NCBI RefSeq assembly: GCF_011045215.1
Contig: NZ_CP049201.1
DNA length: 64,000 bases
Reading direction: 5' to 3' (one strand)
From: Escherichia coli
Lineage (GTDB): Bacteria > Pseudomonadota > Gammaproteobacteria > Enterobacterales > Enterobacteriaceae
Positions 7,561 to 62,320 of the stretch are shown piece by piece. The notes under the pieces were generated by a model that worked only from the letters and a program-made list of their open reading frames with translations, did not search any database and was not told where the DNA came from. How positions within the stretch are numbered: the first letter of the stretch is position 1; each line of letters opens with the position of its first letter. Position numbers and translations under genes: made by a program.

Positions 7561-8664
7561 ATGAGTGACAGCCAGACGCTGGTGGTAAAACTCGGCACCA
7601 GTGTGCTAACAGGCGGATCGCGCCGCCTGAACCGTGCCCATATCGTTGAACTTGTTCGCCAGTGCGCGCAGTTACATGCCGCCGGGCATCGGATTGTTAT
7701 TGTGACGTCGGGCGCGATCGCCGCCGGACGTGAGCACCTGGGTTACCCGGAACTGCCAGCGACTATCGCCTCGAAACAACTGCTGGCGGCGGTAGGGCAG
7801 AGTCGACTGATTCAACTGTGGGAACAGCTGTTTTCGATTTATGGCATTCACGTCGGGCAAATGCTGCTGACTCGTGCTGATATGGAAGACCGTGAACGCT
7901 TCCTGAACGCCCGCGACACCCTGCGTGCGTTGCTCGATAACAATATCGTTCCGGTAATCAATGAGAACGATGCTGTCGCTACGGCAGAGATTAAAGTCGG
8001 CGATAACGACAACCTTTCTGCACTGGCGGCGATTCTGGCGGGTGCCGATAAACTGTTGTTACTGACCGATCAAAAAGGTTTGTATACCGCTGACCCGCGC
8101 AGCAATCCGCAGGCAGAACTGATTAAAGATGTTTACGGCATTGATGACGCACTGCGCGCGATTGCCGGTGACAGCGTTTCAGGCCTCGGAACTGGCGGCA
8201 TGAGTACCAAATTGCAGGCCGCGGACGTGGCTTGCCGTGCGGGTATCGACACCATTATTGCCGCGGGCAGCAAGCCGGGCGTCATTGGTGATGTGATGGA
8301 AGGCATTTCCGTCGGTACGCTGTTCCATGCCCAGGCGACTCCGCTTGAAAACCGTAAACGCTGGATTTTCGGTGCGCCGCCTGCGGGTGAAATCACGGTA
8401 GATGAAGGGGCAACTGCCGCCATTCTGGAACGCGGCAGCTCCCTGTTGCCGAAAGGCATTAAAAGCGTGACTGGCAATTTCTCGCGTGGTGAAGTCATCC
8501 GCATTTGCAACCTCGAAGGCCGCGATATCGCCCACGGTGTCAGCCGTTACAACAGCGATGCATTACGCCGTATTGCCGGACACCACTCGCAAGAAATTGA
8601 TGCAATACTGGGATATGAATACGGCCCGGTTGCCGTTCACCGTGATGACATGATTACCCGTTAA
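7561..8664 (+). CDS. proB: Glutamate 5-kinase
   Basis: Starts [16 protein letters not shown]; PUA domain at C-terminus; ORF-track start 7474 is an upstream in-frame extension. Confidence 0.9.
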
Positions 8665-8675
8665 GGAGCTGGCCG

Positions 8676-9929
8676 ATGCTGGAACAAATGGGCATTGCCG
8701 CGAAGCAAGCCTCGTATAAATTAGCGCAACTCTCCAGCCGCGAAAAAAATCGCGTGCTGGAAAAAATCGCCGATGAACTGGAAGCACAAAGCGAAATCAT
8801 CCTCAACGCTAACGCCCAGGATGTTGCTGACGCGCGAGCCAATGGCCTTAGCGAAGCGATGCTTGACCGTCTGGCACTGACGCCCGCACGGCTGAAAGGC
8901 ATTGCCGACGATGTACGTCAGGTGTGCAACCTCGCCGATCCGGTGGGGCAGGTAATCGATGGCGGCGTACTGGACAGCGGCCTGCGTCTTGAGCGTCGTC
9001 GCGTACCGCTGGGGGTTATTGGCGTGATTTATGAAGCGCGCCCGAACGTGACGGTTGATGTCGCTTCGCTGTGCCTGAAAACCGGTAATGCGGTGATCCT
9101 GCGTGGTGGCAAAGAAACCTGTCGCACTAACGCGGCAACGGTAGCGGTGATTCAGGACGCCCTGAAATCCTGTGGCTTACCGGCGGGTGCCGTGCAGGCG
9201 ATTGATAATCCTGACCGTGCGCTGGTCAGTGAAATGCTGCGTATGGATAAATACATCGACATGCTGATCCCGCGCGGCGGGGCTGGTTTGCATAAACTGT
9301 GCCGCGAACAGTCGACGATCCCGGTGATCACAGGTGGTATAGGCGTATGCCATATTTACGTTGATGAAAGTGCAGAGATCGCTGAAGCCCTGAAAGTAAT
9401 CGTCAATGCGAAAACTCAGCGTCCGAGCACATGTAATACGGTAGAAACGTTGCTGGTGAATAAAAACATCGCCGATAGCTTCCTGCCCGTATTAAGCAAA
9501 CAAATGGCGGAAAGCGGCGTGACATTACACGCAGATGCAGCTGCGCTGACACAGTTGCAGGCAGGCCCCGCGAAGGTGGTGGCGGTTAAAGCCGAAGAGT
9601 ATGACGATGAGTTTCTGTCATTAGATTTGAACGTCAAAATCGTCAGCGATCTTGACGATGCCATCGCCCATATTCGTGAACACGGCACGCAACACTCCGA
9701 TGCGATCCTGACCCGCGATATGCGCAACGCCCAGCGTTTTGTTAACGAAGTGGATTCGTCCGCTGTTTACGTTAACGCCTCTACGCGTTTTACCGACGGC
9801 GGCCAGTTTGGACTGGGTGCGGAAGTGGCGGTAAGCACACAAAAACTCCACGCGCGTGGCCCAATGGGGCTGGAAGCACTGACCACTTACAAGTGGATCG
9901 GCATTGGTGATTACACCATTCGTGCGTAA
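8676..9929 (+). CDS. proA: Gamma-glutamyl phosphate reductase
   Basis: 417 aa ORF immediately after proB, aldehyde dehydrogenase-like. Confidence 0.9.
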
Positions 9930-10043: not shown

Positions 10044-10119
10044 GCCGATATAGCTCAGTTGGTAGAGCAGCGCATTCGTAATGCGAAGGTCGTAGGTTCG
10101 ACTCCTATTATCGGCACCA
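10044..10119 (+). tRNA. thrW: tRNA-Thr (anticodon CGT)
   Basis: 76 nt GCCGATATAGCTCAGTTGGTAGAGCAGCGCATTCGTAATGCG...TCGGCACCA with anticodon loop tCGTa. Confidence 0.9.
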
Positions 10120-34887: not shown

Positions 34888-36367
34888 CACCATTCCGTCG
34901 AATACGCTGGTTCCGTTGTTTTATGCGGAAATGGATAACTCGGCGGCGAATACTGCACAGGACAGCGGAGCATCGCTGCTGATTGGTCATGCCAATAACG
35001 GTGCAGAGATTGTTGCCAACAGTCTGGTACTGATGCCGTCGGCAGACTATGCACGCCAGATTTGTGGTGCGGGAAGTCAGCTGGCGCGTATGGTCGAGGC
35101 TTATCGCCAGACCGACCCGTTTGGTGAGCTGTATGTGATTGCCGTTCCTGAATCCACAGGCGCGGCGGCAACGGTTACGCTGACGGTGACCGGGGCGGCA
35201 ACCGAAACCGGCACGGTGAATGTCTATGTGGGACGTACCCGCGTGCAGGCTCCGGTGACCAACGGCGATAACGTCACGACGATTGCCAGCAGTATCAAAG
35301 ATGCCATCAATGCCGTTCCGGCCCTGCCGTTTACGGCTTCATCTTCGGCAGGCGTGGTCACACTGACCGCGCGTCATAAGGGGCTTTGCGGGAATGAAAT
35401 TCCTGTCAGCCTCAATTACTACGGCTTTGGTGGGGGCGAAGTGCTGCCAGCGGGCGTACAGATTGCCGTGGCGACGGGTACCGCCGGAACGGGTGCTCCG
35501 GTTCTCACCGGCGCGGTGGCTGCAATGGCGGATGAGCCGTTTGATTATATCGGCCTGCCGTTCAACGACACGGCCTCCGTTAACACGCTGATGACCGAGA
35601 TGAACGATACCAGCGGTCGCTGGAGCTATGCGCGTCAGCTGTATGGTCATGTGTATACGGCAAAGATCGGCACGCTGTCAGAACTGGTGACCGCAGGTGA
35701 CCAGTTTAACCAGCAGCACATTACCCTGGCGGGGTACGAAAAAGAGACCCAGACGCCTGCCGACGAACTGGCGGCAAGCCGTACCGCCCGCGCAGCGGTG
35801 TTTATTCGCAACGATCCGGCACGTCCCACGCAGACCGGTGAGCTGGTGGGTATGCTGCCTGCGCCGAAGGGGAAACGGTTCACGATGACCGAACAACAGA
35901 CCCTGCTGTCTCATGGCGTGGCAACGGCGTATGTCGAAAGCGGGGTACTGCGCATTCAGCGTGATGTCACCACGTACAGGAAAAACGCTTACGGGGTTGC
36001 GGATAACAGCTACCTAGACAGTGAGACTCTGCATACCAGCGCGTATGTACTGCGCAAACTGAAATCCGTCATTACCAGTAAGTACGGGCGTCACAAGCTT
36101 GCCAGTGACGGTACCCGCTTTGGTCCCGGTCAGGCGATTGTCACCCCGGCGGTGATCAAAGGGGAACTGCTGGCAACCTACCGTCAGCTTGAGCGTGCGG
36201 GGATCGTGGAAAACTACGCACTGTTTAAGCAGTACCTAGTTGTGGAGCGTGATGCCAGCGATCCGAACCGCCTGAACACGCTGTTCCCGCCTGACTATGT
36301 TAACCAGTTGCGTGTCTTTGCCGTGGTTAACCAGTTCCGTCTTCAGTATTCAGAGGAGTCCGCATAA
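34871..36367 (+). CDS. Tail sheath protein (Mu gpL-like)
   Basis: 498 aa ORF at head of contractile-tail module. Confidence 0.7.
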   Translation: MTISFNTIPSNTLVPLFYAEMDNSAANTAQDSGASLLIGHANNGAEIVANSLVLMPSADYARQICGAGSQLARMVEAYRQTDPFGELYVIAVPESTGAAATVTLTVTGAATETGTVNVYVGRTRVQAPVTNGDNVTTIASSIKDAINAVPALPFTASSSAGVVTLTARHKGLCGNEIPVSLNYYGFGGGEVLPAGVQIAVATGTAGTGAPVLTGAVAAMADEPFDYIGLPFNDTASVNTLMTEMNDTSGRWSYARQLYGHVYTAKIGTLSELVTAGDQFNQQHITLAGYEKETQTPADELAASRTARAAVFIRNDPARPTQTGELVGMLPAPKGKRFTMTEQQTLLSHGVATAYVESGVLRIQRDVTTYRKNAYGVADNSYLDSETLHTSAYVLRKLKSVITSKYGRHKLASDGTRFGPGQAIVTPAVIKGELLATYRQLERAGIVENYALFKQYLVVERDASDPNRLNTLFPPDYVNQLRVFAVVNQFRLQYSEESA

Positions 36368-50069: not shown

Positions 50070-50118
50070 ATTCGTAATGCGAAGGTCGTAGGTTCGACTC
50101 CTATTATCGGCACCATTT
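50070..50118. repeat. attR of prophage / attL of downstream element: second copy of 49-bp tRNA-Thr 3-prime segment
   Basis: Exact repeat of 10074-10122. Confidence 0.75.
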
Positions 50119-50280: not shown

Positions 50281-51471
50281 ATGAAACTAAATGCCCGTCA
50301 GGTCGATACGGCCAAACCGAAAGAAAAACCCTATAAACTGGCCGATGGTGGTGGGCTTTATCTGCTTGTTAATCCCAATGGTTCCCGGTACTGGCGTTTA
50401 AAGTACCGGGTAGCCGGAAAAGAAAAGCTGTTGGCGCTGGGGGTATATCCCGATGTAACCCTGGCTGATGCCAGGGCGAAACGAGATGAGGCCAAAAGGG
50501 GTATGGCTGGGGGGATCGACCCGAACGAAGCGAAGCGGGAAGAAAAATTGAACCGCGAAGCGCAAATCAAAAACACCTTCGAAGAAATCGCCAGAGAGTG
50601 GCATACAGAACGGCAGAAGAAATGGTCTGAGGGGTACGCCTCGGACATTCTGGAAGCATTCAGTAAAGACATATTCCCTTGGATTGGAAAACGCCCCATC
50701 ACGGAAATAAAGCCCCTTGATTTGCTGAATACGCTTAAACGCATCGAGAATAGGGGAGCGACTGAAAAGGCCCGTAAGGTTCGCCAGTGGTGCGGGGAGG
50801 TCTGGAAGTATGCGATCGTTACCGCCCGCGCAGAATATAACCCCGCCCCTGATCTATCTGTGGCTATGGAAGGACACGAAGGGGAGCACTTCCCCCATCT
50901 GGAAGCCGAAGAGTTACCCGAATTTTTCCAGACGCTGGCGACGGCAAAAAGTAACGTTCAGGTTATTTTGGGGCTGCGTCTGCTTATTCTTGTGGGGTTA
51001 CGTCCGGTTGAATTACGCGCGGCCCCGTGGTCAGAGATTGATTTTGATAATGCCTTGTGGGAGATCCCCAAAGAGCGAATGAAGAAAAGACGTCCGCACG
51101 TTGTCCCGCTTTCTCGCCAGGCTATGGTTATTCTCGGGCAATTAAAAGAGTTGTCGGGCCGCAATCCTTTCATTTTTCCGGGCCGGAACGACCCGCGAAA
51201 GCCAATGAGTGAAGGAGCAATTAATCAGCTAATAAAGCGACTCGGGTATAAGGGCAAAGCTTGCGGGCATGGTTTCCGACATACCATGAGCACAATTTTG
51301 TATGAGAAAGGGTATAACACCGAATGGATCGAAACCCAGCTTGCACATGTTGATAAAAATACCATCCGTGGCACATATAATCATGCCCGCTATCTGGATG
51401 GACGCCGGGAAATGCTTCAATGGTATGCCGACTATATGGAATCGCTGGCGAGTGGCAGGGTAAAAGATTAG
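50281..51471 (+). CDS. P4-type integrase (tyrosine recombinase)
   Basis: N-terminal MKLNARQVDTAKPKEKPYKLADGGGLYL typical of P4-family integrases; catalytic HGFRHT... Confidence 0.85.
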   Translation: MKLNARQVDTAKPKEKPYKLADGGGLYLLVNPNGSRYWRLKYRVAGKEKLLALGVYPDVTLADARAKRDEAKRGMAGGIDPNEAKREEKLNREAQIKNTFEEIAREWHTERQKKWSEGYASDILEAFSKDIFPWIGKRPITEIKPLDLLNTLKRIENRGATEKARKVRQWCGEVWKYAIVTARAEYNPAPDLSVAMEGHEGEHFPHLEAEELPEFFQTLATAKSNVQVILGLRLLILVGLRPVELRAAPWSEIDFDNALWEIPKERMKKRRPHVVPLSRQAMVILGQLKELSGRNPFIFPGRNDPRKPMSEGAINQLIKRLGYKGKACGHGFRHTMSTILYEKGYNTEWIETQLAHVDKNTIRGTYNHARYLDGRREMLQWYADYMESLASGRVKD

Positions 51472-52020
51472 AGAAGGTCTAAGACGGGAATACCGCTAAA
51501 TTAGATGTTAGGCGTGGACACTCAGCATCCACGCTTAAACTTTTTATTATCATTTTCAATGAATTATGATTTTGGAAATTTTATAAAAAACACCAAGATT
51601 ACTAATCTATTGATTAATATGAAATATTTCTTTTTTTGATTATTAATTGTGCTCTTGATTGTTGTTTTTATGGTGTTAATTTATAAAAATCTTATTTATA
51701 GGAATTAACATTATATAGTTGGCACTTTTTGCTAAAATCTGTTTTTATTGTGTTTTATTTTTATTTCATTTTTGTTGTTGTTTGTTTGATTTTTAGTGTC
51801 TTTATATCTGGCTAATTGATTTCACTCAAACCATAAATCCTTTCAGAGGCTTCTAGAGTCTTCCTGAGGCTTAAATTGACTTAACTAAAAGTCAAGCCCC
51901 ACATCCCACATACATCTTTTTGACATGCACTTATGGCGTGAATAACAATGACTTCATCCAATCTACAGGCATCCTATAAAGTCAATGTCTGTATATAGAA
52001 AGATATTACATAACGTTTGA

Positions 52021-52260
52021 ATGTTAATAGCGGGTGTGAATATGAGAAATGATGCAATGCAGCTTTTAAACCAGGGAAAAAGATTGATCCGCCTGCCTGA
52101 AGTTATGATGCTTACGGGGCGGTGTCGCGCCAGTATTTATAAAGATATCAATGCAAATGTCTTTCCAAAGCCGATTAAAACCGGCCCGCGTTCTGTCGCA
52201 TGGGTTGAGGGTGAGATCAGCGACTGGATCGACAACAAAATCAAAGAGCGCAAAGTGTAA
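52021..52260 (+). CDS. AlpA-family transcriptional regulator
   Basis: RLIRLPEVMMLTGRCRASIYKDI...FPKPIK.GPRSVAWVEGEISDWI; start may be 52057. Confidence 0.7.
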   Translation: MLIAGVNMRNDAMQLLNQGKRLIRLPEVMMLTGRCRASIYKDINANVFPKPIKTGPRSVAWVEGEISDWIDNKIKERKV

Positions 52261-52459
52261 ATCTGATTTTATTCAGAGATGAATATGATTTATTTGAATG
52301 CTAAGGATTTTGTGTATTCTTTTTGTTGTAAATACTCGTAGCATGGGGAGTTGGCAGTATTTATTCAGTATTAGGTTAAGTAGTGATAAAATACCAGGTA
52401 ATGCCGGTTTATGCAGTGTTTAATATATTTGTTGCTGGCGAAAATTTACGGAAAATTAA

Positions 52460-53332
52460 ATGAACATTACTGATATTATCAGCCATCGCGTATATCGTGA
52501 TGCGGATCTTGCTGTCATTAATAACACGGCATTTATTCAGCCTTATGACGGTTGTCACCGTGGGTTGTATGAAATGCGCGTTATTGAACTTTATCGCCTG
52601 AATAAAATGATGCACCTTACCCACGAATATAAATCTATTTCCGGGGAAAGCGTAGGCATTCCGGCGACTAAAGAGGAACTGTTTACACTGGTTAATAAAG
52701 GGCATGAACTTTGCCAGTCTGAACGGGAAAAGCTGGCGGCACTTGAAGCAGAATTGCAGCGTCTGCCAAGCCCGGCTGTAATTCCTGCGCCGCAGACGAT
52801 TAAAGAAGCACAGCAGGCCCGTAAATCACTAGAAGATGAAAGATACAGACTGCATCACGCAGCAATTAAAAATCAAGTCAAAGCACAGCAGGAAGAGTTA
52901 TCCATCAGACAAAACATTCTGGAATTGCTCGCGCCGGTTATTGATGTGTTGTTGGCCGTGGAAGATGTGGAACTGCTCGATCTGCGCCGTTCCCTGCCTA
53001 AGTCATCCCTCGATGCTAAGGCATTCAAAAAGGCGATTTCTGAAATTGAGTGTGCTGACCTTGCCTGGCAGAAAATGGATAAACTGGAGATTGCCCTTAA
53101 CAAGGTGGTGAACAACTGCACATATCGCCCGGAAGGAAGCATTAATCCCCGTTTTGTTAACCCTCTTAATGAAGATAAGCGGGAACGCGCCGAAATATCA
53201 CGCGATTATTACAGCTCTGAAATGGCCTTTATTCATACGGTGATGAGTGCAGATGAATATTTAAATTATATGTTGCCGATCCGTCACCAGCAGCGCGCGC
53301 AACGACTCACATTAGAAAGAAATATCAACTAA
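52460..53332 (+). CDS. Coiled-coil protein (possible scaffold or capsid-size factor)
   Basis: 290 aa with long predicted helical/coiled-coil central region; immediately upstream of capsid-like gene. Confidence 0.4.
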   Translation: MNITDIISHRVYRDADLAVINNTAFIQPYDGCHRGLYEMRVIELYRLNKMMHLTHEYKSISGESVGIPATKEELFTLVNKGHELCQSEREKLAALEAELQRLPSPAVIPAPQTIKEAQQARKSLEDERYRLHHAAIKNQVKAQQEELSIRQNILELLAPVIDVLLAVEDVELLDLRRSLPKSSLDAKAFKKAISEIECADLAWQKMDKLEIALNKVVNNCTYRPEGSINPRFVNPLNEDKRERAEISRDYYSSEMAFIHTVMSADEYLNYMLPIRHQQRAQRLTLERNIN

Positions 53333-53341
53333 GGAAGAATT

Positions 53342-54349
53342 ATGTCTTATGTAACACCAGATTATTTAACGCAGTATCACGAAAACCTGATTAAGTCTTT
53401 TAATATTAAATATAAAAACGAAGATACGGGGTATTTCACCATATCACAGCCGGAAAAAGCATCTCCGGATGCATGGGGATGTTCCACGCTTGATGTTAAA
53501 GGCTCGTCCTGGCTGATTGATAATATTTCATTACTGGACATTATCGGTGCGGATGGCACGACGATCACCATCGGTGATGGTTCCCTTTATACAGGCCGTG
53601 CAAAGGAAGGTCGCTTTCATAAGAAACTAAAAACCAACGGAACACCTTTTTTATTATCAGAAACGGATTCCTGCGCCTCATTGACTTATGAAGAAATGGC
53701 GGTAATGGCAAACGCGAAAAATTTCAGTAATGAAATGATCATTTTTTTCAAGAAGGCCGTGGTGCGGGATATGCTCCGTATTGGATTTAACGGCAAGATG
53801 ATTGCCGAAAATACCAACCCGGAACAATATAAAAACGGCGAAGATATCAATATTGGCTGGCACTCGCTGGCAAAAACATTCAATAACGGTTCACAAATTA
53901 TTTCTGATGCTTTCGCACTGGGGAAAGGCGGTGATTTTGCCGATGTTCACGATCTGGCTGATTGCCTCATCACGTCAAAAATCCCCGAAGGTCAGCGCGA
54001 AGATCCGGGCCTTGTGGTGATGGTTGGCGCGCAACTTGCCGCCCGCGAACGACTGAAACTGTTCAACATGGCCGATCAACCACTGACGCTGACGGCGGGG
54101 GATATGCTGACAAGCAGTGTCGCCGGTCGCTTTGCTTTTATCCCGCCGTTTATGCCGGGTAAGCGCCTGGCTGTTACGACGCTGAAAAATTTGCAGATCC
54201 TGACGCTGAAACACAGCCAACGCTACCGCGCGGAGGATATCCCGCAACGAGGTGTTTATGAGCATGGCTATTTACGTGAGGAAGGTTACGCGCTGGGGGA
54301 TGGCTATCTTTACGCGGCCAGCGATGAGAACGCCGTAACGCTGGTTTAA
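53342..54349 (+). CDS. P2 gpN-family major capsid-like protein
   Basis: Motifs GFNG, GKGGDFA and EDPGLVVMVGAQLAA resemble recalled P2 gpN; needs search confirmation. Confidence 0.5.
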   Translation: MSYVTPDYLTQYHENLIKSFNIKYKNEDTGYFTISQPEKASPDAWGCSTLDVKGSSWLIDNISLLDIIGADGTTITIGDGSLYTGRAKEGRFHKKLKTNGTPFLLSETDSCASLTYEEMAVMANAKNFSNEMIIFFKKAVVRDMLRIGFNGKMIAENTNPEQYKNGEDINIGWHSLAKTFNNGSQIISDAFALGKGGDFADVHDLADCLITSKIPEGQREDPGLVVMVGAQLAARERLKLFNMADQPLTLTAGDMLTSSVAGRFAFIPPFMPGKRLAVTTLKNLQILTLKHSQRYRAEDIPQRGVYEHGYLREEGYALGDGYLYAASDENAVTLV

Positions 54350-54561
54350 GTATCGAGTACAGCCAGCTTTGACAGTGATGGCCAGATAAAAGAAAACCCT
54401 CTCACCGGAACGAACAAGAAACGATAAGAGGGTTTATCAGGAAGATGATTCTACGTGATGAATTATACCGAGAAACAACCGATGCTTACCAGCAAAAACG
54501 CGTCACTGTTTGTGCAGCTGGCACCGTCCGATCTGACGGTGTTTTCCGGAATGGTAAGGAG

Positions 54562-54753
54562 CTATTCCTTTGCCTTTTTGCGCTGTTCTGCTTTCAGCTT
54601 GCGCCCGCAGGCATCCAGCACCCAAGCGGAAAAACTTGAACCCGGATTATCGACTTTTTCGCGTTCTACGCAGGCATCAATTTCTGCGATCATTTCATGC
54701 GGGAAGCGTATTCCCTTGTATGTTGTTTTGCTGTTTATGTGGTTTTTAGTCAT
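54562..54753 (-). CDS. Putative ribbon-helix-helix repressor
   Basis: 64 aa; start placed at MTKNH; divergent from operator array. Confidence 0.45.
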   Translation of the reverse strand: MTKNHINSKTTYKGIRFPHEMIAEIDACVEREKVDNPGSSFSAWVLDACGRKLKAEQRKKAKE

Positions 54754-54769
54754 GCTGGAAACTCTTAAG

Positions 54770-54870
54770 TGTTTAAACATCAGTAAAGATACAGTAAAGC
54801 CGGACATAACAAAACTGTTTAAACAAAATCTGTTGACTTGTTTAAACACTCAGCATAATGTGTTTAAACA
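54770..54870. promoter_or_regulatory. Operator array: four copies of palindrome TGTTTAAACA overlapping a rightward promoter
   Basis: Copies at 54770, 54816, 54839, 54861; TTGACT at 54834. Confidence 0.55.
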
Positions 54871-54960
54871 GTTTGCTACGTTGCAAACTGAAAAAACGAA
54901 GCCCGGCAGTGTTGACGCACTAACCGGGCCTCTGACCAACACGTTATTAGGAGTAACGCT

Positions 54961-55164
54961 ATGGCTAGCCATCAGTGTAACCAAACTCGCCCTAAAAATC
55001 GCCTATTTCTCTTTCTCGCGGTATCACGGGCCGACATGCAGGACAAACCACACCGCGAACAAATCACCGCGTACAGCGAACAGGAAGCCCGTTCCATGCT
55101 GGCCGGTCGCTTTATCCTCTGCTTTGCTGGCCGTCTGCCGGTTCAGGAGGTGCACCATGTTTAA
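54961..55164 (+). CDS. Hypothetical small protein
   Basis: 67 aa ORF with AGGAG RBS. Confidence 0.4.
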   Translation: MASHQCNQTRPKNRLFLFLAVSRADMQDKPHREQITAYSEQEARSMLAGRFILCFAGRLPVQEVHHV

Positions 55165-55405
55165 CCCACTGGACAACCGCAAAGCGGCGGCGCTTAACCC
55201 GTTCCACGATGACTGTTACGATCCGCCAGCCTTTATTAAACCGGGTTCAAAAGTAGTGGTTGAAATTGATTCCCGGGAAATGGAGGTCGCTATTCTAGCC
55301 GCTTATGACTACGGACTGGACGCGCTGAACGACGATGGCCGGGAAGAGCTTAACCGCTTAATTGCTGACCTGAAAGACAAGATAACGGAGGCGCGGTATG
55401 CATAA
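55157..55405 (+). CDS. Hypothetical small protein
   Basis: 82 aa with CAGGAGG RBS; C-terminal part of a longer ORF-track entry. Confidence 0.4.
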   Translation: MFNPLDNRKAAALNPFHDDCYDPPAFIKPGSKVVVEIDSREMEVAILAAYDYGLDALNDDGREELNRLIADLKDKITEARYA

Positions 55406-55823
55406 TCTGCTTAATTCACCGTTGCCAGTGTCTATGGATCTCTTTCAGGCTGGCGAGATGTGCGGGCATTTTGTCGCGCGGTTAACGGATGAAAGTTGTG
55501 TTGACGAGACTGAACGCGTCGCACTTTGCGGACGTCTGGCTTTTGCCCTGCGTTCTCTTTCATCTCTTTGTGATACAGACTATCCATCGCATATCCAGGC
55601 GCAATTAACCGCGACTGCTATTCCTGCTCCCTGCGTACCTGATGAGTGGATCGACGCGACGATCATGACGGGCTATTGCACCGCCTTAAATGATGCGCTG
55701 CTTAGTCGCTCCCTTCGTATGGACGTTGAAACACAATTACGCTGGCTTTTGCATGACATGATTAATTTACTTGTCAGATATCTGAAACAGCCTTGTATTA
55801 AGGCGGGAGTAGATCATGTCTGA
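55398..55823 (+). CDS. Hypothetical protein
   Basis: 141 aa ORF in operon string. Confidence 0.4.
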   Translation: MHNLLNSPLPVSMDLFQAGEMCGHFVARLTDESCVDETERVALCGRLAFALRSLSSLCDTDYPSHIQAQLTATAIPAPCVPDEWIDATIMTGYCTALNDALLSRSLRMDVETQLRWLLHDMINLLVRYLKQPCIKAGVDHV

Positions 55824-56214
55824 AATTATGCTCACACCGTTTCACGTTGACCGCCATTTTTACGATCTGGTTTACGGTGCTTCATTTTTTGCGGATGCAT
55901 TACCTGCAATGAATGATATCAAGCAGCAGCGGCTTTATTGTCGATTATTGCAATTAAATCTGGTTGTTTTATTTGAAAAACGGTCGCGGGATATTCCCCC
56001 AATTCAGTCGAGTAAAATAAAAATCGCTGATGAGGTTATATTTCTTAATGTCGATAATATTTATCATGCGCTTTCCCTGACTGCCGGGCTGATAAGTCAG
56101 GATATCAGTAAGGGGATGGAAAAAGAACTGGCTGAATATATCAGGGATATTATTAGTATTATTTTTAATGAAATGCGAATGCAGATGGTTGATTATGATC
56201 CATATGAAATGTGA
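55816..56214 (+). CDS. Hypothetical protein
   Basis: 132 aa ORF in operon string. Confidence 0.4.
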   Translation: MSEIMLTPFHVDRHFYDLVYGASFFADALPAMNDIKQQRLYCRLLQLNLVVLFEKRSRDIPPIQSSKIKIADEVIFLNVDNIYHALSLTAGLISQDISKGMEKELAEYIRDIISIIFNEMRMQMVDYDPYEM

Positions 56215-56310
56215 GACGAATAAAACAATAATCGATTTATAAGAACTGAAAAATATTTAATTATAACCGTATTTTAACGGGGGATAATTACGCCCCTGTA
56301 AGGAAAATAT

Positions 56311-56580
56311 ATGTCTGATTTGAATACCATTGCTGTTAATAGTGCTGAAAAATATCTTAGCCTTGAGTGCTTCCATAAACTCAACCGCGCAAGGAATGTT
56401 TCATTCCAGATGCATTTACAGATCCGTCAGTGTGAGATAAACGGCCTGCCACTTTTATGGATTCCAGATATTTTCAGCTATATCAGCGAAGACATATCCG
56501 CCGTTCTGGAAGAAGCCAAAGTACTTGGCCTTTGCGATAAGTTCACAGGCGAAGCCCGGATCGGTCAGGTCAGTCTTTAA
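56311..56580 (+). CDS. Hypothetical protein
   Basis: 89 aa ORF upstream of primase. Confidence 0.35.
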   Translation: MSDLNTIAVNSAEKYLSLECFHKLNRARNVSFQMHLQIRQCEINGLPLLWIPDIFSYISEDISAVLEEAKVLGLCDKFTGEARIGQVSL

Positions 56581-56613
56581 TTTTTTGTATTCCGCGCCGC
56601 CCGCTGCGGCGCA

Positions 56614-59376
56614 TTGTCTTACCCATTAATAAAGGTCATACCGATGCAAGGTAAAAAAGTTTCACAGACAGCAGGACGCGCGGCGGGCCAGTGGGAAAAT
56701 ATTCTTGAACACCTGGGGATTACTGTTCCTGCGGGTGGTCTTCATGGCCCCTGCCCGATCTGCGGCGGTAAAGATCGTTTTCGCTTTGATAATAAAAAAG
56801 GGCGTGGAACCTGGTTCTGCAACCAGTGCGGCCACGGTGACGGGCTGGATCTGGTCAAACTGGCGCTTTCGCTGGACACCGGGCCAGCCGCTGATCGAGT
56901 TGCTGAATTACTTCCGGCCCTTCCTCCGCCTGCGGTCATGCAGCCTGCCAGAAAAGAAGCCAGTGACGAAGGTCGCCCACATGACTACTGGCAACGCCTC
57001 TTTGCCCGTACTCAGCCGGGGGAAAGCCCTTACCTTACGGCGCGGGGGCTGACAGGTTTTGAACTGCCGCTGACCGTTCAGGAGATGAAAACCGCTGGCG
57101 GTGTTTTTCCGGCTGGTTCGCTTTTATTACCGATCACGGACACCGAAGGACGGATGACCGGTGCACAGCTTATCGGCCCGGACAAGGTAAAAGGCTTATG
57201 TGCTGGCACCAGGAAAAAAGGGCGTTTTATCTCTGTCGGGCCGTTCCCGGAGAAAATGCCCGCGCGGATCATTATCTCGGAAGGCTTTGCCACTGCGTTA
57301 AGCGCATCCCTGCTTTCAGAGGGCTGGAGTATTGCGGCGCTGGATAAAGGCAACCTGAAAGACGTTGCGGAGCAAATCCGCCAGAAATGGCCGGACGTGC
57401 AGATCGTTATTGCCGGTGATAATGACTTTTCTGACGGTAAACCCAATCAGGGGAAAGAGTCTGCGATCAAAGCTGCACTGGCCGTTAAGGGATGGATGAC
57501 CATTCCTCCCGGACGGATCAAAGTTGACTGGGATGATTACCGCCGTGAATTTGGCCTCCAGCGCGCCCGTGACGCATTCGCGGAAGAACTGCTTAACCCG
57601 GCAGACACCGAAACGCGTTTACCGCATGGTTTCCGCCTGACGAAGGATTATCTTTGGTTTGATCGCCCGCTCAGTGACGGTAGCGAAAGCGGCCAGACTC
57701 GCCAGGTGAAGATATGTAGCCCGCTCAAAGTGACGGCCATCACCAGCGACGGCGAAGGCGGTAAATTCGGGCGTCTGCTTGAGTGGGAAGACTCCAGCGG
57801 ATTACGGCATGAATGGGCGATGCCAATGACAGTGCTTGCCGGAAGCGGTCAGGAGCTGCGGGAGGTTCTGCTTGATAACGGAATGCACTTTATCAGCGTG
57901 AACGGCGCGGCGCGTAGCTATCTGATGGAATACATTTCTAACTGTCGCCCGGTTCGCCGCGTCACCTGCGTTGAAAAAACAGGCTGGTTTAGCGGTGCGT
58001 ATGTTCTCCAGGATGAGGTGATCGGCAGCGATGCCGGATCGGTCATCCTCCAGTCTGCTATGTCGTCTAAAAATGACTTCCGGGTGAGCGGAACGGTGGC
58101 GGAATGGGCGCAACACGTCGGGCGCTATTGTGCCGGAAATTCCCGCCTGGTGTTCTGCGTCAGTCTGGCGCTGGCCGCGCCGTTACTGAATATTATTGGT
58201 GTTGGCGGCGGCGGTTATCACCTTAAGGGCGAATCCACGGACGGCAAGACAACCACAATGAAGGTAGCGGCGTCTGTCTGCGGCGGGCCTGATTTCTGGA
58301 AAACGTGGCGGGCAACCGGAAACGCGCTGGAAGGTATTGCGCTACGCCGTAATGATGCCGCCCTGATGCTGGATGAAATCAGCGAAGTTGACGGCAGAGA
58401 GGCTAGCCGGATCGCCTATATGCTGGGGAACGGGCAGGGCAAAGCAAGGGGGCGCGTTGATGGCAGCGTCCGCGATCCGGTGACCTGGACATTGCTTTAC
58501 CTGTCCACCGGGGAAATCTCTATTGCGGAACATGCCGCCGAAGCCGGAGAAAAGCGAACCGGCGCGGGTGTCGGTGTGCGTATGGTGCAAATCCCCAGCG
58601 ATACCGGAAAACATGGCGCTTTCGAAAATCTCCACGGCATGGAAGGCGGTAAAGCGTTTGCGGAATACCTTGAACAGACCTGTAAACAATATTACGGCGC
58701 GCCGTTCCGCGAATGGTTGCGCTGGCTGGCGGCAAATCTGACGGAAACCGCGAACCGGGCGCGGGCAATGAAAAAAGAGTATGAACGGACATTATTACCC
58801 GAAGATTCCGGCAAGCAGGTTGGGCGCATTGTGGATCGCTTTGCACTGTTGGCCGTTGCGGGGGAACTGGCGAGTGAAGCGGGGATCACAGGCTGGCAAC
58901 CAGGAGAAGCGTATAACGCTGCAAGAAGCTGTCTGGCGGCATGGCTTAACGATCGTGGACATGCGGCCAACCAGGAAGAAGCCGACGCGCTGGAGAAGGT
59001 GCGGCGCTTTATTACGGCCAATCAGTACACACGCTTTGCTGACTGGTATGACGAGAAAAACCGCCCGTCAAATATGGTTGGCTTTCGCCGGGTGGAGAAA
59101 GGCGGGAACGGTATTGGCATGAGCAAAAAGGAGAACAGCGGCGATACTGTTAAAGACGGGGACGCCACTAAAGAGCCGGAAACCACATTTTATATCCTGC
59201 CCAGCGGATGGAAGGAAATTTGCGGGACGTCGGACAGCGTTAAAACGGCGAGACTATGCGACGAGGCTGGATGGCTTGTAAAGGATGAAGATCGCCAGCG
59301 CCTACAACGTACAGTAAGACTACCGGAAATTGGCTTAAAGAAAGTGTATGTGTTCAGCGGCGAAGTGATCGGATAA
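56614..59376 (+). CDS. P4 alpha-like primase-helicase
   Basis: Zinc-binding CPICGG...CNQCGHGDG, TOPRIM-like IISEGFATA...AGDND, P-loop GESTDGKTT. Confidence 0.8.
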   Translation: MSYPLIKVIPMQGKKVSQTAGRAAGQWENILEHLGITVPAGGLHGPCPICGGKDRFRFDNKKGRGTWFCNQCGHGDGLDLVKLALSLDTGPAADRVAELLPALPPPAVMQPARKEASDEGRPHDYWQRLFARTQPGESPYLTARGLTGFELPLTVQEMKTAGGVFPAGSLLLPITDTEGRMTGAQLIGPDKVKGLCAGTRKKGRFISVGPFPEKMPARIIISEGFATALSASLLSEGWSIAALDKGNLKDVAEQIRQKWPDVQIVIAGDNDFSDGKPNQGKESAIKAALAVKGWMTIPPGRIKVDWDDYRREFGLQRARDAFAEELLNPADTETRLPHGFRLTKDYLWFDRPLSDGSESGQTRQVKICSPLKVTAITSDGEGGKFGRLLEWEDSSGLRHEWAMPMTVLAGSGQELREVLLDNGMHFISVNGAARSYLMEYISNCRPVRRVTCVEKTGWFSGAYVLQDEVIGSDAGSVILQSAMSSKNDFRVSGTVAEWAQHVGRYCAGNSRLVFCVSLALAAPLLNIIGVGGGGYHLKGESTDGKTTTMKVAASVCGGPDFWKTWRATGNALEGIALRRNDAALMLDEISEVDGREASRIAYMLGNGQGKARGRVDGSVRDPVTWTLLYLSTGEISIAEHAAEAGEKRTGAGVGVRMVQIPSDTGKHGAFENLHGMEGGKAFAEYLEQTCKQYYGAPFREWLRWLAANLTETANRARAMKKEYERTLLPEDSGKQVGRIVDRFALLAVAGELASEAGITGWQPGEAYNAARSCLAAWLNDRGHAANQEEADALEKVRRFITANQYTRFADWYDEKNRPSNMVGFRRVEKGGNGIGMSKKENSGDTVKDGDATKEPETTFYILPSGWKEICGTSDSVKTARLCDEAGWLVKDEDRQRLQRTVRLPEIGLKKVYVFSGEVIG

Positions 59377-59469: not shown

Positions 59470-59690
59470 TTTTAGTGGAAACAGTGGGAACATAGGGAAC
59501 AGACTTGATTTATAAAGGTTTTATTTGTTCCCAATTACTGTTCCCATATGGTAACAGGTGGTAATGTATTTTAAATCATATGGTTATGTTGATATGCAAA
59601 GCGTTGTTCCCAGTTGTAAAAGAGAGATGGGAACAGGAAAAAGGTATAAATATCAACACTGTTACCATTGTTCCCACTGTTTCCACCATT
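59470..59690. repeat. Iteron cluster (TGTTCCCA / TGGGAACA), crr/ori-like
   Basis: At least 9 copies in both orientations directly downstream of primase. Confidence 0.6.
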
Positions 59691-59724
59691 TTTGACAATA
59701 ACAATATTTAATTTCGGGGAAAAT

Positions 59725-59741
59725 GCTTTTCCCTGGCTGGC
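59725..59741. repeat. 17-bp direct repeat GCTTTTCCCTGGCTGGC (copy 1)
   Basis: Perfect match to 62005-62021. Confidence 0.6.
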
Positions 59742-59760
59742 TAACATCAAAGGTAAAGAA

Positions 59761-60726
59761 ATGAGCATTAAGAAACGTCCTGATGGAAAATGGCTGGTAG
59801 ATATGCGGCCCGCAGGTCGTAAAGGAAAACGTATTCGCAGGGTTTTTAACAGGAAATCGGAGGCCCTGGCATTTGAGATGTATTACCTGGTCCGTTCTCA
59901 ATCGCCGGAATGGGCAACGAACTTCACAGACCGCAGATTATTAAGCGATTTGCGTAAAACATGGTGGGACCTGTTTGGACACGCCAGAAATAACGCAGAA
60001 ACTGAAAAGCGCCAGCTTGATAAAACCATCCGGCAGATGGGAGATCCACCAGTTAACCGGCTTACAATCCGCTTCATTCTGGAATTCAGAGCAGGCCGTG
60101 TTTCAGGGAAATTAAAGGCATCCACGATAAATCGCGATATGTACCGGTTATCAGGCATGTTTACCGAATTAATTAAAGCAGGTGAGTGTAAAAATAATCC
60201 GTTCCGTAGTCTTGAACCGTTAAAGGAAGAACCTTCCGCAGTAACGTTTCTGACCCACGAAGAAATTAGCATGTTACTGGAAAAACTGGAGGGAGATTCG
60301 CGTAAGCTGGCGTTACTGTGTCTTAATACTGGGGCGCGTTTCAGTGAAGCCGCGAATCTAACGGCTGAAATGGTTAACAACCGTCGTGTAACGTTTATTA
60401 AGACAAAGAACGGGAAGCAGCGGACAATACCCATTTCATCTGAACTCGAAAAGGAAATAAAAACAAAAAATTCAGGTCAACTTTTCACGGTGGATTATAA
60501 ATGGTTTTCCCGCAGGTTGAAGGCAATCAAACCGGATTTACCGGATGGACAGGCAACGCATGTATTACGACATACTTTCGCCAGTCATTTCATTATGAAT
60601 GGGGGAAATATTGTTGTATTAAAAGAGATTCTTGGACATGCCAATATTCAGCAAACTATGATTTATGCACACTTTGCGCCTGAATTTCTGGCGCAGGCTG
60701 TAACATTGAATCCATTTAGTAAGTAA
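59761..60726 (+). CDS. Tyrosine integrase (second integrase of the region)
   Basis: N-terminal MSIKKRPDGKWLVD arm-binding-like region; C-terminal HVLRHTFASH... Confidence 0.8.
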   Translation: MSIKKRPDGKWLVDMRPAGRKGKRIRRVFNRKSEALAFEMYYLVRSQSPEWATNFTDRRLLSDLRKTWWDLFGHARNNAETEKRQLDKTIRQMGDPPVNRLTIRFILEFRAGRVSGKLKASTINRDMYRLSGMFTELIKAGECKNNPFRSLEPLKEEPSAVTFLTHEEISMLLEKLEGDSRKLALLCLNTGARFSEAANLTAEMVNNRRVTFIKTKNGKQRTIPISSELEKEIKTKNSGQLFTVDYKWFSRRLKAIKPDLPDGQATHVLRHTFASHFIMNGGNIVVLKEILGHANIQQTMIYAHFAPEFLAQAVTLNPFSK

Positions 60727-60754
60727 CTGCGGATTTTCTTTTGAATGTACAAAA

Positions 60755-61012
60755 CTAACGTTGAAGTAATTCTTTCATGACCGTTTTTTGTTCCGGCGTC
60801 ATCATGTCAATCATTGTTTTTACTGCTTTATCCCCAGTCAGAGCGCTGGGGCTTAGCGTATGGGAGAACGTCATATTCATAACGAAGGTATGCCCACATT
60901 CAACATTATTACAGGCACAATACATATCAGACAGGTGGGGATGCTTGCGCACTGTCTTTTTTGTTGTTGAATTACTTCCACACTCAGGACAAACAATTTT
61001 ATGGCTGCGCAT
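60755..61012 (-). CDS. Ogr/Delta-family zinc-finger late-gene activator-like protein
   Basis: CPEC...CACNNVEC zinc-finger spacing resembling P2 Ogr; start uncertain. Confidence 0.5.
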   Translation of the reverse strand: MRSHKIVCPECGSNSTTKKTVRKHPHLSDMYCACNNVECGHTFVMNMTFSHTLSPSALTGDKAVKTMIDMMTPEQKTVMKELLQR

Positions 61013-62021: not shown

Positions 62022-62320
62022 GGGTTTACCTTAACTTTGCCAGCACTGTTTAAACGCCCGCCGCTCTCTCCCAAATACAGTATAAAAAGCAATCAATTAT
62101 TGTGGACGTAAAAGCGCATGGGGGTACAATTGGGGGTACGTTGGTTATCCATTATGTAATAAATTCATAATAAACATGGTGTTATATTGCATGTTTAACT
62201 CTTATTATCTACCCCATATTCAAATACACCACGTTTCCTCCTGTGCCGTATTTATGCCATTGTAACCCTGGCAATTAATCAAAATACTGTTCTGACATCA
62301 GGCAATGCAGGTGCAGACAT

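Follow-up and report, generated by a model that had tools for sequence, protein, structure and literature searches.

Based on our analysis of a 64,000-nucleotide stretch of the Escherichia coli contig NZ_CP049201.1 (assembly GCF_011045215.1; this whole stretch is called the window, and positions are counted from its first letter unless another locus is named), we propose that a YlcI-family protein of 63 amino acids (aa), encoded by an integrated phage satellite, is a ribbon-helix-helix (RHH) repressor, and that four palindromes beside its gene are its operators, lying at the rightward promoter (P_R) of the satellite's replication operon. We would put the probability of this reading at about 0.8. 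A sequence-only reading of the window had already taken the palindromes for an operator array through which the adjacent repressor controls the rightward operon. Our analysis, which is purely computational, points the same way: the sites overlap the predicted promoter, co-vary with the protein and are swapped together with its gene, and a search by site pattern leads back to proteins with the matching motif. The features of the control region are as follows.

54393-54440, minus strand: intrinsic terminator of ylcI, a hairpin followed by UUUUCUUUU (U-tract), -21.3 kcal/mol, z -4.33
54498-54898: exchangeable specificity cassette of 401 bp, holding ylcI, the four sites, both promoters and the 5' hairpin
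54562-54753, minus strand: ylcI-like gene, 63 aa plus stop, product a predicted RHH repressor
54769-54780: site 1 (O_L), GTGTTTAAACAT, 17 bp upstream of the ylcI ATG and at or just past the predicted leftward start
54783-54799, minus strand: tentative candidate zone for the -10 element of the leftward promoter (P_L), TATCTT (54786-54791) or either of two TTTACT copies
54815-54826: site 2, CTGTTTAAACAA, between the two divergent promoters
54833-54861, plus strand: P_R, predicted, with -35 TTGACT (54833-54838), a 17-bp spacer, -10 TAATGT (54856-54861) and +1 near 54868
54838-54849: site 3 (O_R1), TTGTTTAAACAC, beginning at the last -35 base and occupying the promoter spacer
54860-54871: site 4 (O_R2), GTGTTTAAACAG, overlapping the last two -10 bases and the predicted +1
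54869-54890, plus strand: 5'-proximal hairpin of the rightward transcript, its sequence varying in relatives and the hairpin kept
54898-54958, plus strand: conserved structured leader, with a hairpin at 54898-54932, single-stranded TCTGACCA at 54931-54938 and a second hairpin at 54942-54958

Four exact copies of the self-complementary 10-mer TGTTTAAACA are present (54770-54779, 54816-54825, 54839-54848 and 54861-54870), just where the sequence-only reading had placed them, and the array occupies the 207-bp gap that separates two divergent transcription units. No other 10-mer of the window reaches three non-overlapping copies inside 120 bp, and such a cluster appeared in 0 of 200 dinucleotide-preserving shuffles; the clustering is beyond chance. 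Apart from the four copies, the window holds two one-mismatch matches, at 36222 and 62047. Since shuffled windows contain on average 2.83 matches in all at one mismatch or fewer, these two scattered near-matches are unremarkable. The copies had been described as evenly spaced, which is approximately right: the start-to-start spacings of 46, 23 and 22 bp place them on a lattice of about 23 bp, but one position of that lattice is vacant. With their flanking bases, the sites are 12-mers near GTGTTTAAACAC.

The sequence-only reading had also reported a related half-site near 62036. The sequence in question is TGTTTAAACG at 62047-62056, which falls between the yoeB gene and the element's right end. 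We rejected it as a part of the system: it is unchanged in the satellite L053/L054, which has a different specificity (numbers of this kind denote the loci compared with the window), and L054's own site type is not enriched around the equivalent of the 62047 region. It is a chance near-match in conserved flanking DNA.

P_R was read from the sequence, and its assignment rests on positional conservation across relatives, for which our comparison set comprised about 50 loci encoding YlcI relatives, with 25 distinct architectures. The TTGACT hexamer had been said to overlap the palindromes; the hexamer itself is there, but it abuts the 10-mer of site 3, and only the 12-mer shares its last base. 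In nearly all of the 25 architectures, a site lies directly at the last base of a -35 element of the form TTGAC followed by G, A or T. O_R2 follows 22-26 bp (mostly 23) past O_R1, covering the final two bases of a -10 element of the form TAnnGT. Most relatives have a third site 18-29 bp from the ylcI start codon and 46-47 bp from the next site, and a TATGGT or TATAGT hexamer abuts O_L on the leftward strand. A motif search in related satellites, which the sequence-only reading had offered as a check, finds the layout conserved in about 30 distinct relatives, with inner bases that differ among their GTG-N6-CAC sites. By position, the putative operators overlap the core of the predicted promoter of the replication operon.

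Site 2 is an extra site of the group with TTTAAA specificity (L001, L017, L018, L023, L072, L074 and L077) and is absent in three-site relatives. In the operator region of the viral contig L039, the 23-bp unit is duplicated, so that three ATGTGCGCACA-type units stand in tandem after the -35; in that of the viral contig L047, a deletion leaves a single unit. The number of sites therefore varies through slippage of units. Of additional note, a direct repeat of CAGTAAAG lies at 54781-54799, between sites 1 and 2, with its two copies 11 bp apart; each copy reads TTTACT on the minus strand, a possible -10 hexamer for P_L.

The open reading frame (ORF) beside the array had been counted as 64 residues, which includes the stop codon. 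Its 63-aa product belongs to the YlcI/YnfO family: it scores 49.4 bits against NCBIfam NF041551 (YlcI_YnfO_N; cutoff 30, E 3.5e-13) and 25.1 bits against Pfam PF13132 (DUF3950; cutoff 25), and the identical product in L001 is named YlcI/YnfO family protein by the Prokaryotic Genome Annotation Pipeline. In the literature, we found no functional study of YlcI, YnfO or DUF3950. Pfam at E up to 0.1 returned DUF3950 only, with no curated RHH family matched; a profile search of PDB sequences with YlcI gave no RHH match, and Foldseek with the YlcI model returned nothing. Because the RHH strand forms in the dimer only, we modeled two YlcI copies joined by a Gly-Ser linker in AlphaFold2 with a matched alignment. 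The dimer model has a strand at residues 10-18 in both copies, a helix at 19-35 and a helix at about 41-63, with a predicted local distance difference test score of 86-92 in the structured parts and a predicted template modeling score of 0.66. The two predicted strands pair as an antiparallel two-stranded ribbon resembling that of solved RHH dimers; the monomer model shows two helices and an extended N-terminus. These models support membership of YlcI in the RHH (Arc/MetJ/CopG) superfamily at the fold level only, in line with the earlier description of the protein as RHH-like. A terminator stands right after ylcI, and the gene is therefore monocistronic.

Four independent comparisons agree in supporting the view that YlcI and the palindromes are a cognate pair, as far as sequences can tell. 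The sites of the relatives are all of the form GTG-N6-CAC, and their inner six bases fall into at least 10 types, each with its own strand residues in the protein, including the following pairings of strand motif and inner bases.

x-Y-K-G: TTTAAA or TTTACA
T-T-K-G: TATATG
A-T-K-G: CCCCAA
A-T-K-K: TGGCCG
A-Q-K-K: TACCCC

We examined this co-variation in 28 distinct protein-site pairs with 2000 permutations. Identity of the inner bases correlated with identity of the N-terminal 15 residues (rho 0.43) and of the five strand residues 10-14 (rho 0.36, a value reached in 0 of 2000 permutations). With the remaining 43 residues there was no correlation (rho 0.08, reached in 284 of 2000).

A comparison with L053, an E. 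coli satellite, shows the protein and the sites changing together. Identity between L053 and the window is 99.1% for 50831-54497 and 97.0% for 54899-58965, and the 401 bp between these two segments (54498-54898) show no detectable similarity. There, L053 encodes another YlcI allele (RIPHEV type, 61 aa), and the four palindromes give way to three GTGTATTTCAC-type sites. L002, whose sites are GTGTTCAACAC, parts from the window in a similar manner, at 54585 and 54889. The genes for AlpA, the capsid protein, the Icd-like protein, the epsilon-like protein and the primase are near-identical between the window and these swapped satellites, and therefore none of them specifies the sites. ylcI and its putative sites appear to be exchanged as a unit, giving distinct predicted specificities in the manner of heteroimmune elements. 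A finer contrast is provided by L003 and L026, whose proteins differ at four residues, including the strand change Q12T, and whose sites are GTGTACCCCCAC and GTGTGGCCGCAC, respectively.

The last comparison runs from site to protein. We fetched viral contigs selected solely by two TTTAAACA sites 11-15 bp apart. This pattern was too permissive and yielded at least 120 viral loci, mostly chance matches in AT-rich DNA. Among the matches listed, four loci have a YlcI-like ORF next to the matched sites, and in all four the strand motif is x-Y-K-G; three of them (L072, L074 and L077) are new and more divergent, with the same promoter layout.

From these results, we propose a mechanism for the switch. 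YlcI is predicted to dimerize via an antiparallel ribbon made of residues 10-18 of each subunit, and we infer that it binds DNA with a stoichiometry of one dimer per 12-bp GTG-N6-CAC site. The inner TTTAAA would be read by ribbon residues 12 and 14, which are variable in the family and are Tyr and Gly in the window's protein, and the conserved outer GTG/CAC by conserved residues such as Arg16. Regulation would be negative: YlcI on sites 3 and 4 would exclude RNA polymerase from P_R, and the operon of the Icd-like, epsilon-like and primase genes would thus stay off in the integrated satellite, which would give YlcI a part in maintenance or immunity. Site 1, at the start of the ylcI transcript, would provide negative autoregulation, and site 2 probably adds cooperativity on the lattice of about 23 bp. 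Repression may be lifted by a helper-phage anti-repressor, which is a conjecture. Exchanged 401-bp cassettes would confer differing specificities of repression.

The rightward transcript has a further feature that may take part in control. Its leader is predicted to fold with an energy of -36.9 kcal/mol (z -4.55), and in an alignment of 24 loci compensatory changes are found at 8 of 13 predicted pairs. The second hairpin contains the Shine-Dalgarno sequence AGGAG, and the apical stem of the leader is itself of GTG-N6/7-CAC form. The leader starts exactly at the right edge of the cassette, and satellites keep it whatever their YlcI specificity type. In having ACCA after a stem, it is reminiscent of P4 CI and P1 C4, which are RNase P substrates. 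Rfam at the gathering threshold gave no match in the whole window, including C4 and isrK; at E up to 10, the region 54400-55200 gave only weak matches to microRNA models, which arise because the palindromes pair with each other, and again no C4 or isrK.

Several points weigh against our proposal. Binding and repression are predictions from sequence comparison and modeling, and so are both promoters: a consensus promoter scan of 54300-55100 called none, missing P_R because its weak -10, TAATGT, fits TATAAT at only three of six positions, and our reading of the sequence found no convincing -35 for P_L. The co-variation statistics are partly confounded, being inflated by shared ancestry, and it is therefore the cassette swap, the L003/L026 pair and the pattern-fetch test that carry weight. 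Control could lie chiefly with the conserved leader RNA, and YlcI would then play a secondary part. The E. coli K-12 proteins YlcI (prophage DLP12) and YnfO (prophage Qin) show clear homology to the satellite protein, including the RFP motif and NFSAWV; K-12 ylcI (6252-6446 in L055, DLP12) is divergent and stands beside a lambda-type cos site and nohD, and its upstream region has no repeated palindrome array. The proposed function may therefore not extend to the whole YlcI family, whose members in lambdoid prophages may have another role or unrecognized sites.

YlcI might also bind the sites in some capacity other than that of maintenance or immunity repressor, as a Cro-like or feedback regulator acting after induction or as a homeostatic autoregulator, with quiescence set by other means, for instance by a need for AlpA or by the conserved leader RNA. 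The structured leader between P_R and the first gene would fit this, as would the report that Gram-negative phage-inducible chromosomal islands (PICIs) have AlpA as an activator and that helper-dependent expression drives their induction (PMC6092414). We nevertheless consider it unlikely, if a serious alternative: with two operators on the core of P_R and one at P_L, the arrangement is what one would expect if a repressor shut down the replication operon, the variety of swapped specificity types is reminiscent of immunity regions, and no other candidate repressor gene was found in the element. It is very unlikely that the palindromes are sites of another protein (AlpA, the Icd-like protein, another operon product or a host factor) and that the adjacency of ylcI is incidental. 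Any DNA-binding protein of the element could in principle be meant, and nothing specific favors one; in L053, the AlpA, capsid, Icd-like, epsilon-like and primase genes are 97-99% identical to those of the window, yet the sites are wholly different and only ylcI changes with them, and across relatives the site sequence tracks the YlcI strand residues.

The same satellite bears on whether the palindromes could be replication-origin iterons bound by the P4 alpha-like primase. They do repeat at regular spacing, and the origin repeats in the P4 annotation lie between divergent early and late genes; in L053, however, the primase is 97% conserved and the palindromes are replaced. A separate cluster of seven TGTTCCC iterons is present at 59486-59675, and the relatives' sites are locked to -35 and -10 positions, all of which makes an origin here hardly credible. 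We see next to no chance that YlcI is an RHH antitoxin of a toxin-antitoxin pair, with the palindromes as its autoregulatory operator: ylcI, which ends at a terminator of its own, is monocistronic, and neither a toxin gene nor a further ORF is co-transcribed with it, most of the sites lie on the divergent promoter and not on ylcI's own, and the element already has a separate YefM/YoeB pair.

The element that carries the proposed YlcI switch is a phage satellite that begins at a copy of a tRNA-Thr 3' end (50100) and continues with an integrase gene, the AlpA gene, an ORF of 290 aa and a P2-family capsid gene. The rightward operon follows, with three small ORFs between its Icd-like and epsilon-like genes, and after the primase gene come the TGTTCCC iterons, an Ogr/Delta-like zinc-finger gene and the YefM/YoeB pair. 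The main features of the operon and its downstream region are as follows.

54961-55164, plus strand: Icd-like host cell division inhibitor, first gene of the operon (NCBIfam NF033153, E 6.8e-19)
56311-56580, plus strand: derepression protein, P4 epsilon-like (Pfam PF25738, E 3e-22)
56614-59376, plus strand: primase/helicase, P4 alpha-like, 920 aa, last large gene of the operon
59486-59675: candidate replication origin, seven TGTTCCC iterons in both orientations, directly 3' of the primase gene

The homologue of the primase is annotated as a DUF927 protein in L001 and as a toprim domain-containing protein in L002. The cluster at 59486-59675 holds 7 of the 12 TGTTCCC matches in the window, and it is probable that these iterons are the satellite's replication origin. 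At 59668-60726, inside the satellite and after the origin, there is a second tyrosine-recombinase-like ORF (352 aa). This ORF is absent in L001, an E. coli element that is otherwise 97.6% identical, with the homology break at 59848-60761. On the other side of the array, the segment 52460-54349 holds the gene for the P2-family major capsid protein (335 aa; Pfam E 1e-54) and, before it, the 290-aa ORF, which is without a family match and possibly encodes a scaffold. The 16-base tRNA-Thr 3' end (10104-10119; gene 10044-10119) is repeated exactly at 50100-50115, directly before the satellite integrase gene, and there is no third copy at the right end of the satellite. This arrangement suggests tandem integration of an island of about 40 kb and the satellite at one and the same tRNA-Thr gene.

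Among known systems, the closest in function would be, by analogy, the immI region of phage P22. In immI, the RHH repressors Mnt and Arc act at the divergent promoters P_ant and P_mnt (operators O_mnt and O_arc) and control an anti-repressor operon. The predicted YlcI fold matches Arc, although there is no detectable sequence homology. immI has two repressor genes and a single operator of 17-21 bp, whereas the satellite has one repressor gene and three or four 12-bp GTG-N6-CAC sites on a 23-bp lattice; moreover, immI belongs to a phage, whereas the YlcI cassette belongs to a satellite and comes in many exchangeable specificity types. In being swapped, the YlcI cassettes are analogous to the immunity regions of lambdoid phages. 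Omega of pSM19035, with which we grouped CopG- and ParG-type RHH regulators as compared systems, uses 7-bp heptads that touch one another and is also centromere-binding, whereas the YlcI sites are 12-bp units 22-46 bp apart. There is no partition ATPase gene among the satellite's annotated or scanned genes.

The task of the proposed switch recalls satellite P4. Both have the same kind of operon (a gene of the Icd region, an epsilon derepression protein and an alpha primase), a constitutive-looking promoter and a structured leader, and in both the replication operon would have to be off in the lysogen. P4 immunity, however, is exerted by CI RNA, with seqA/seqB/seqC termination in the P_LE leader, whereas the YlcI system would use a protein repressor. 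P4 also encodes no capsid protein, whereas the satellite in the window has its own P2-family capsid gene. A comparison of the P4 genome with the window found no homologous leader and no divergent RHH gene, only a short match within the Icd region. Staphylococcus aureus pathogenicity islands and Gram-positive PICIs with Stl or Rpr likewise have a divergent repressor gene by the satellite replication module, a candidate point of control by the helper (PMC6092414). The Stl proteins, however, are larger helix-turn-helix proteins unrelated to RHH, and their derepression by helper proteins is demonstrated, whereas for YlcI it is conjecture. For Gram-negative PICIs, the global repressor has been described as unclear, with AlpA as an activator (PMC6092414), and a survey reported C4- and isrK-type immunity RNAs in some of them and no protein repressor of the YlcI kind (PMC10111431). 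In our own search of the literature, we found no functional description of an RHH repressor in PICIs or P4-like satellites, nor in the regulation of capsid-forming PICIs.

Cassettes of the YlcI type are found in three types of satellites: P4-like elements with a P2-type capsid gene (L001, L002 and L053), the capsid-forming PICI vB_KppS-Ant (L003) and a PICI at tRNA-Pro with a primase and a single-stranded DNA-binding protein (L052). Few complete E. coli genomes have them (6 of 5426). A scan of a genome collection gave 13 loci, and a homologue search gave 111 clusters (90% identity), whose genera include Salmonella, Klebsiella, Serratia, Yersinia, Pectobacterium and Dickeya. The annotation of vB_KppS-Ant (LR881103.1) lacks the 67-aa ylcI gene (8979-9182 in that record) and has instead, on the opposite strand, an ORF of 324 aa (8575-9549) that extends across ylcI, the operators and the Icd-like gene. 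This ORF is very likely a mis-annotation; its equivalent in the window is 54455-55405.

The proposed switch is of an ordinary kind, an RHH repressor with promoter-overlapping operators, here assigned to an uncharacterized protein family in a class of elements whose repressor had not been known. At somewhat short of even odds, we would tentatively go further and suggest that YlcI RHH cassettes are the master repressor and immunity determinant of Gram-negative satellites, replacing the P4 CI RNA, with many specificities coded at ribbon positions 12 and 14 and with the stem-ACCA leader as a second checkpoint. The pairing of Y-K-G with TTTAAA and the Q12T switch between L003 and L026 may be examples of such a code. 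Our proposal gives DUF3950 (YlcI/YnfO), a family widespread in Enterobacterales, a testable function. The swapped cassettes, together with near-identical proteins that have differing sites, form a natural system for the study of RHH-DNA recognition, and YlcI cassettes could provide orthogonal repressor-operator pairs for engineering. If the proposal is true, a divergent repressor acting on the replication and derepression promoter would fill the missing role of repressor in at least one large subgroup of satellites.
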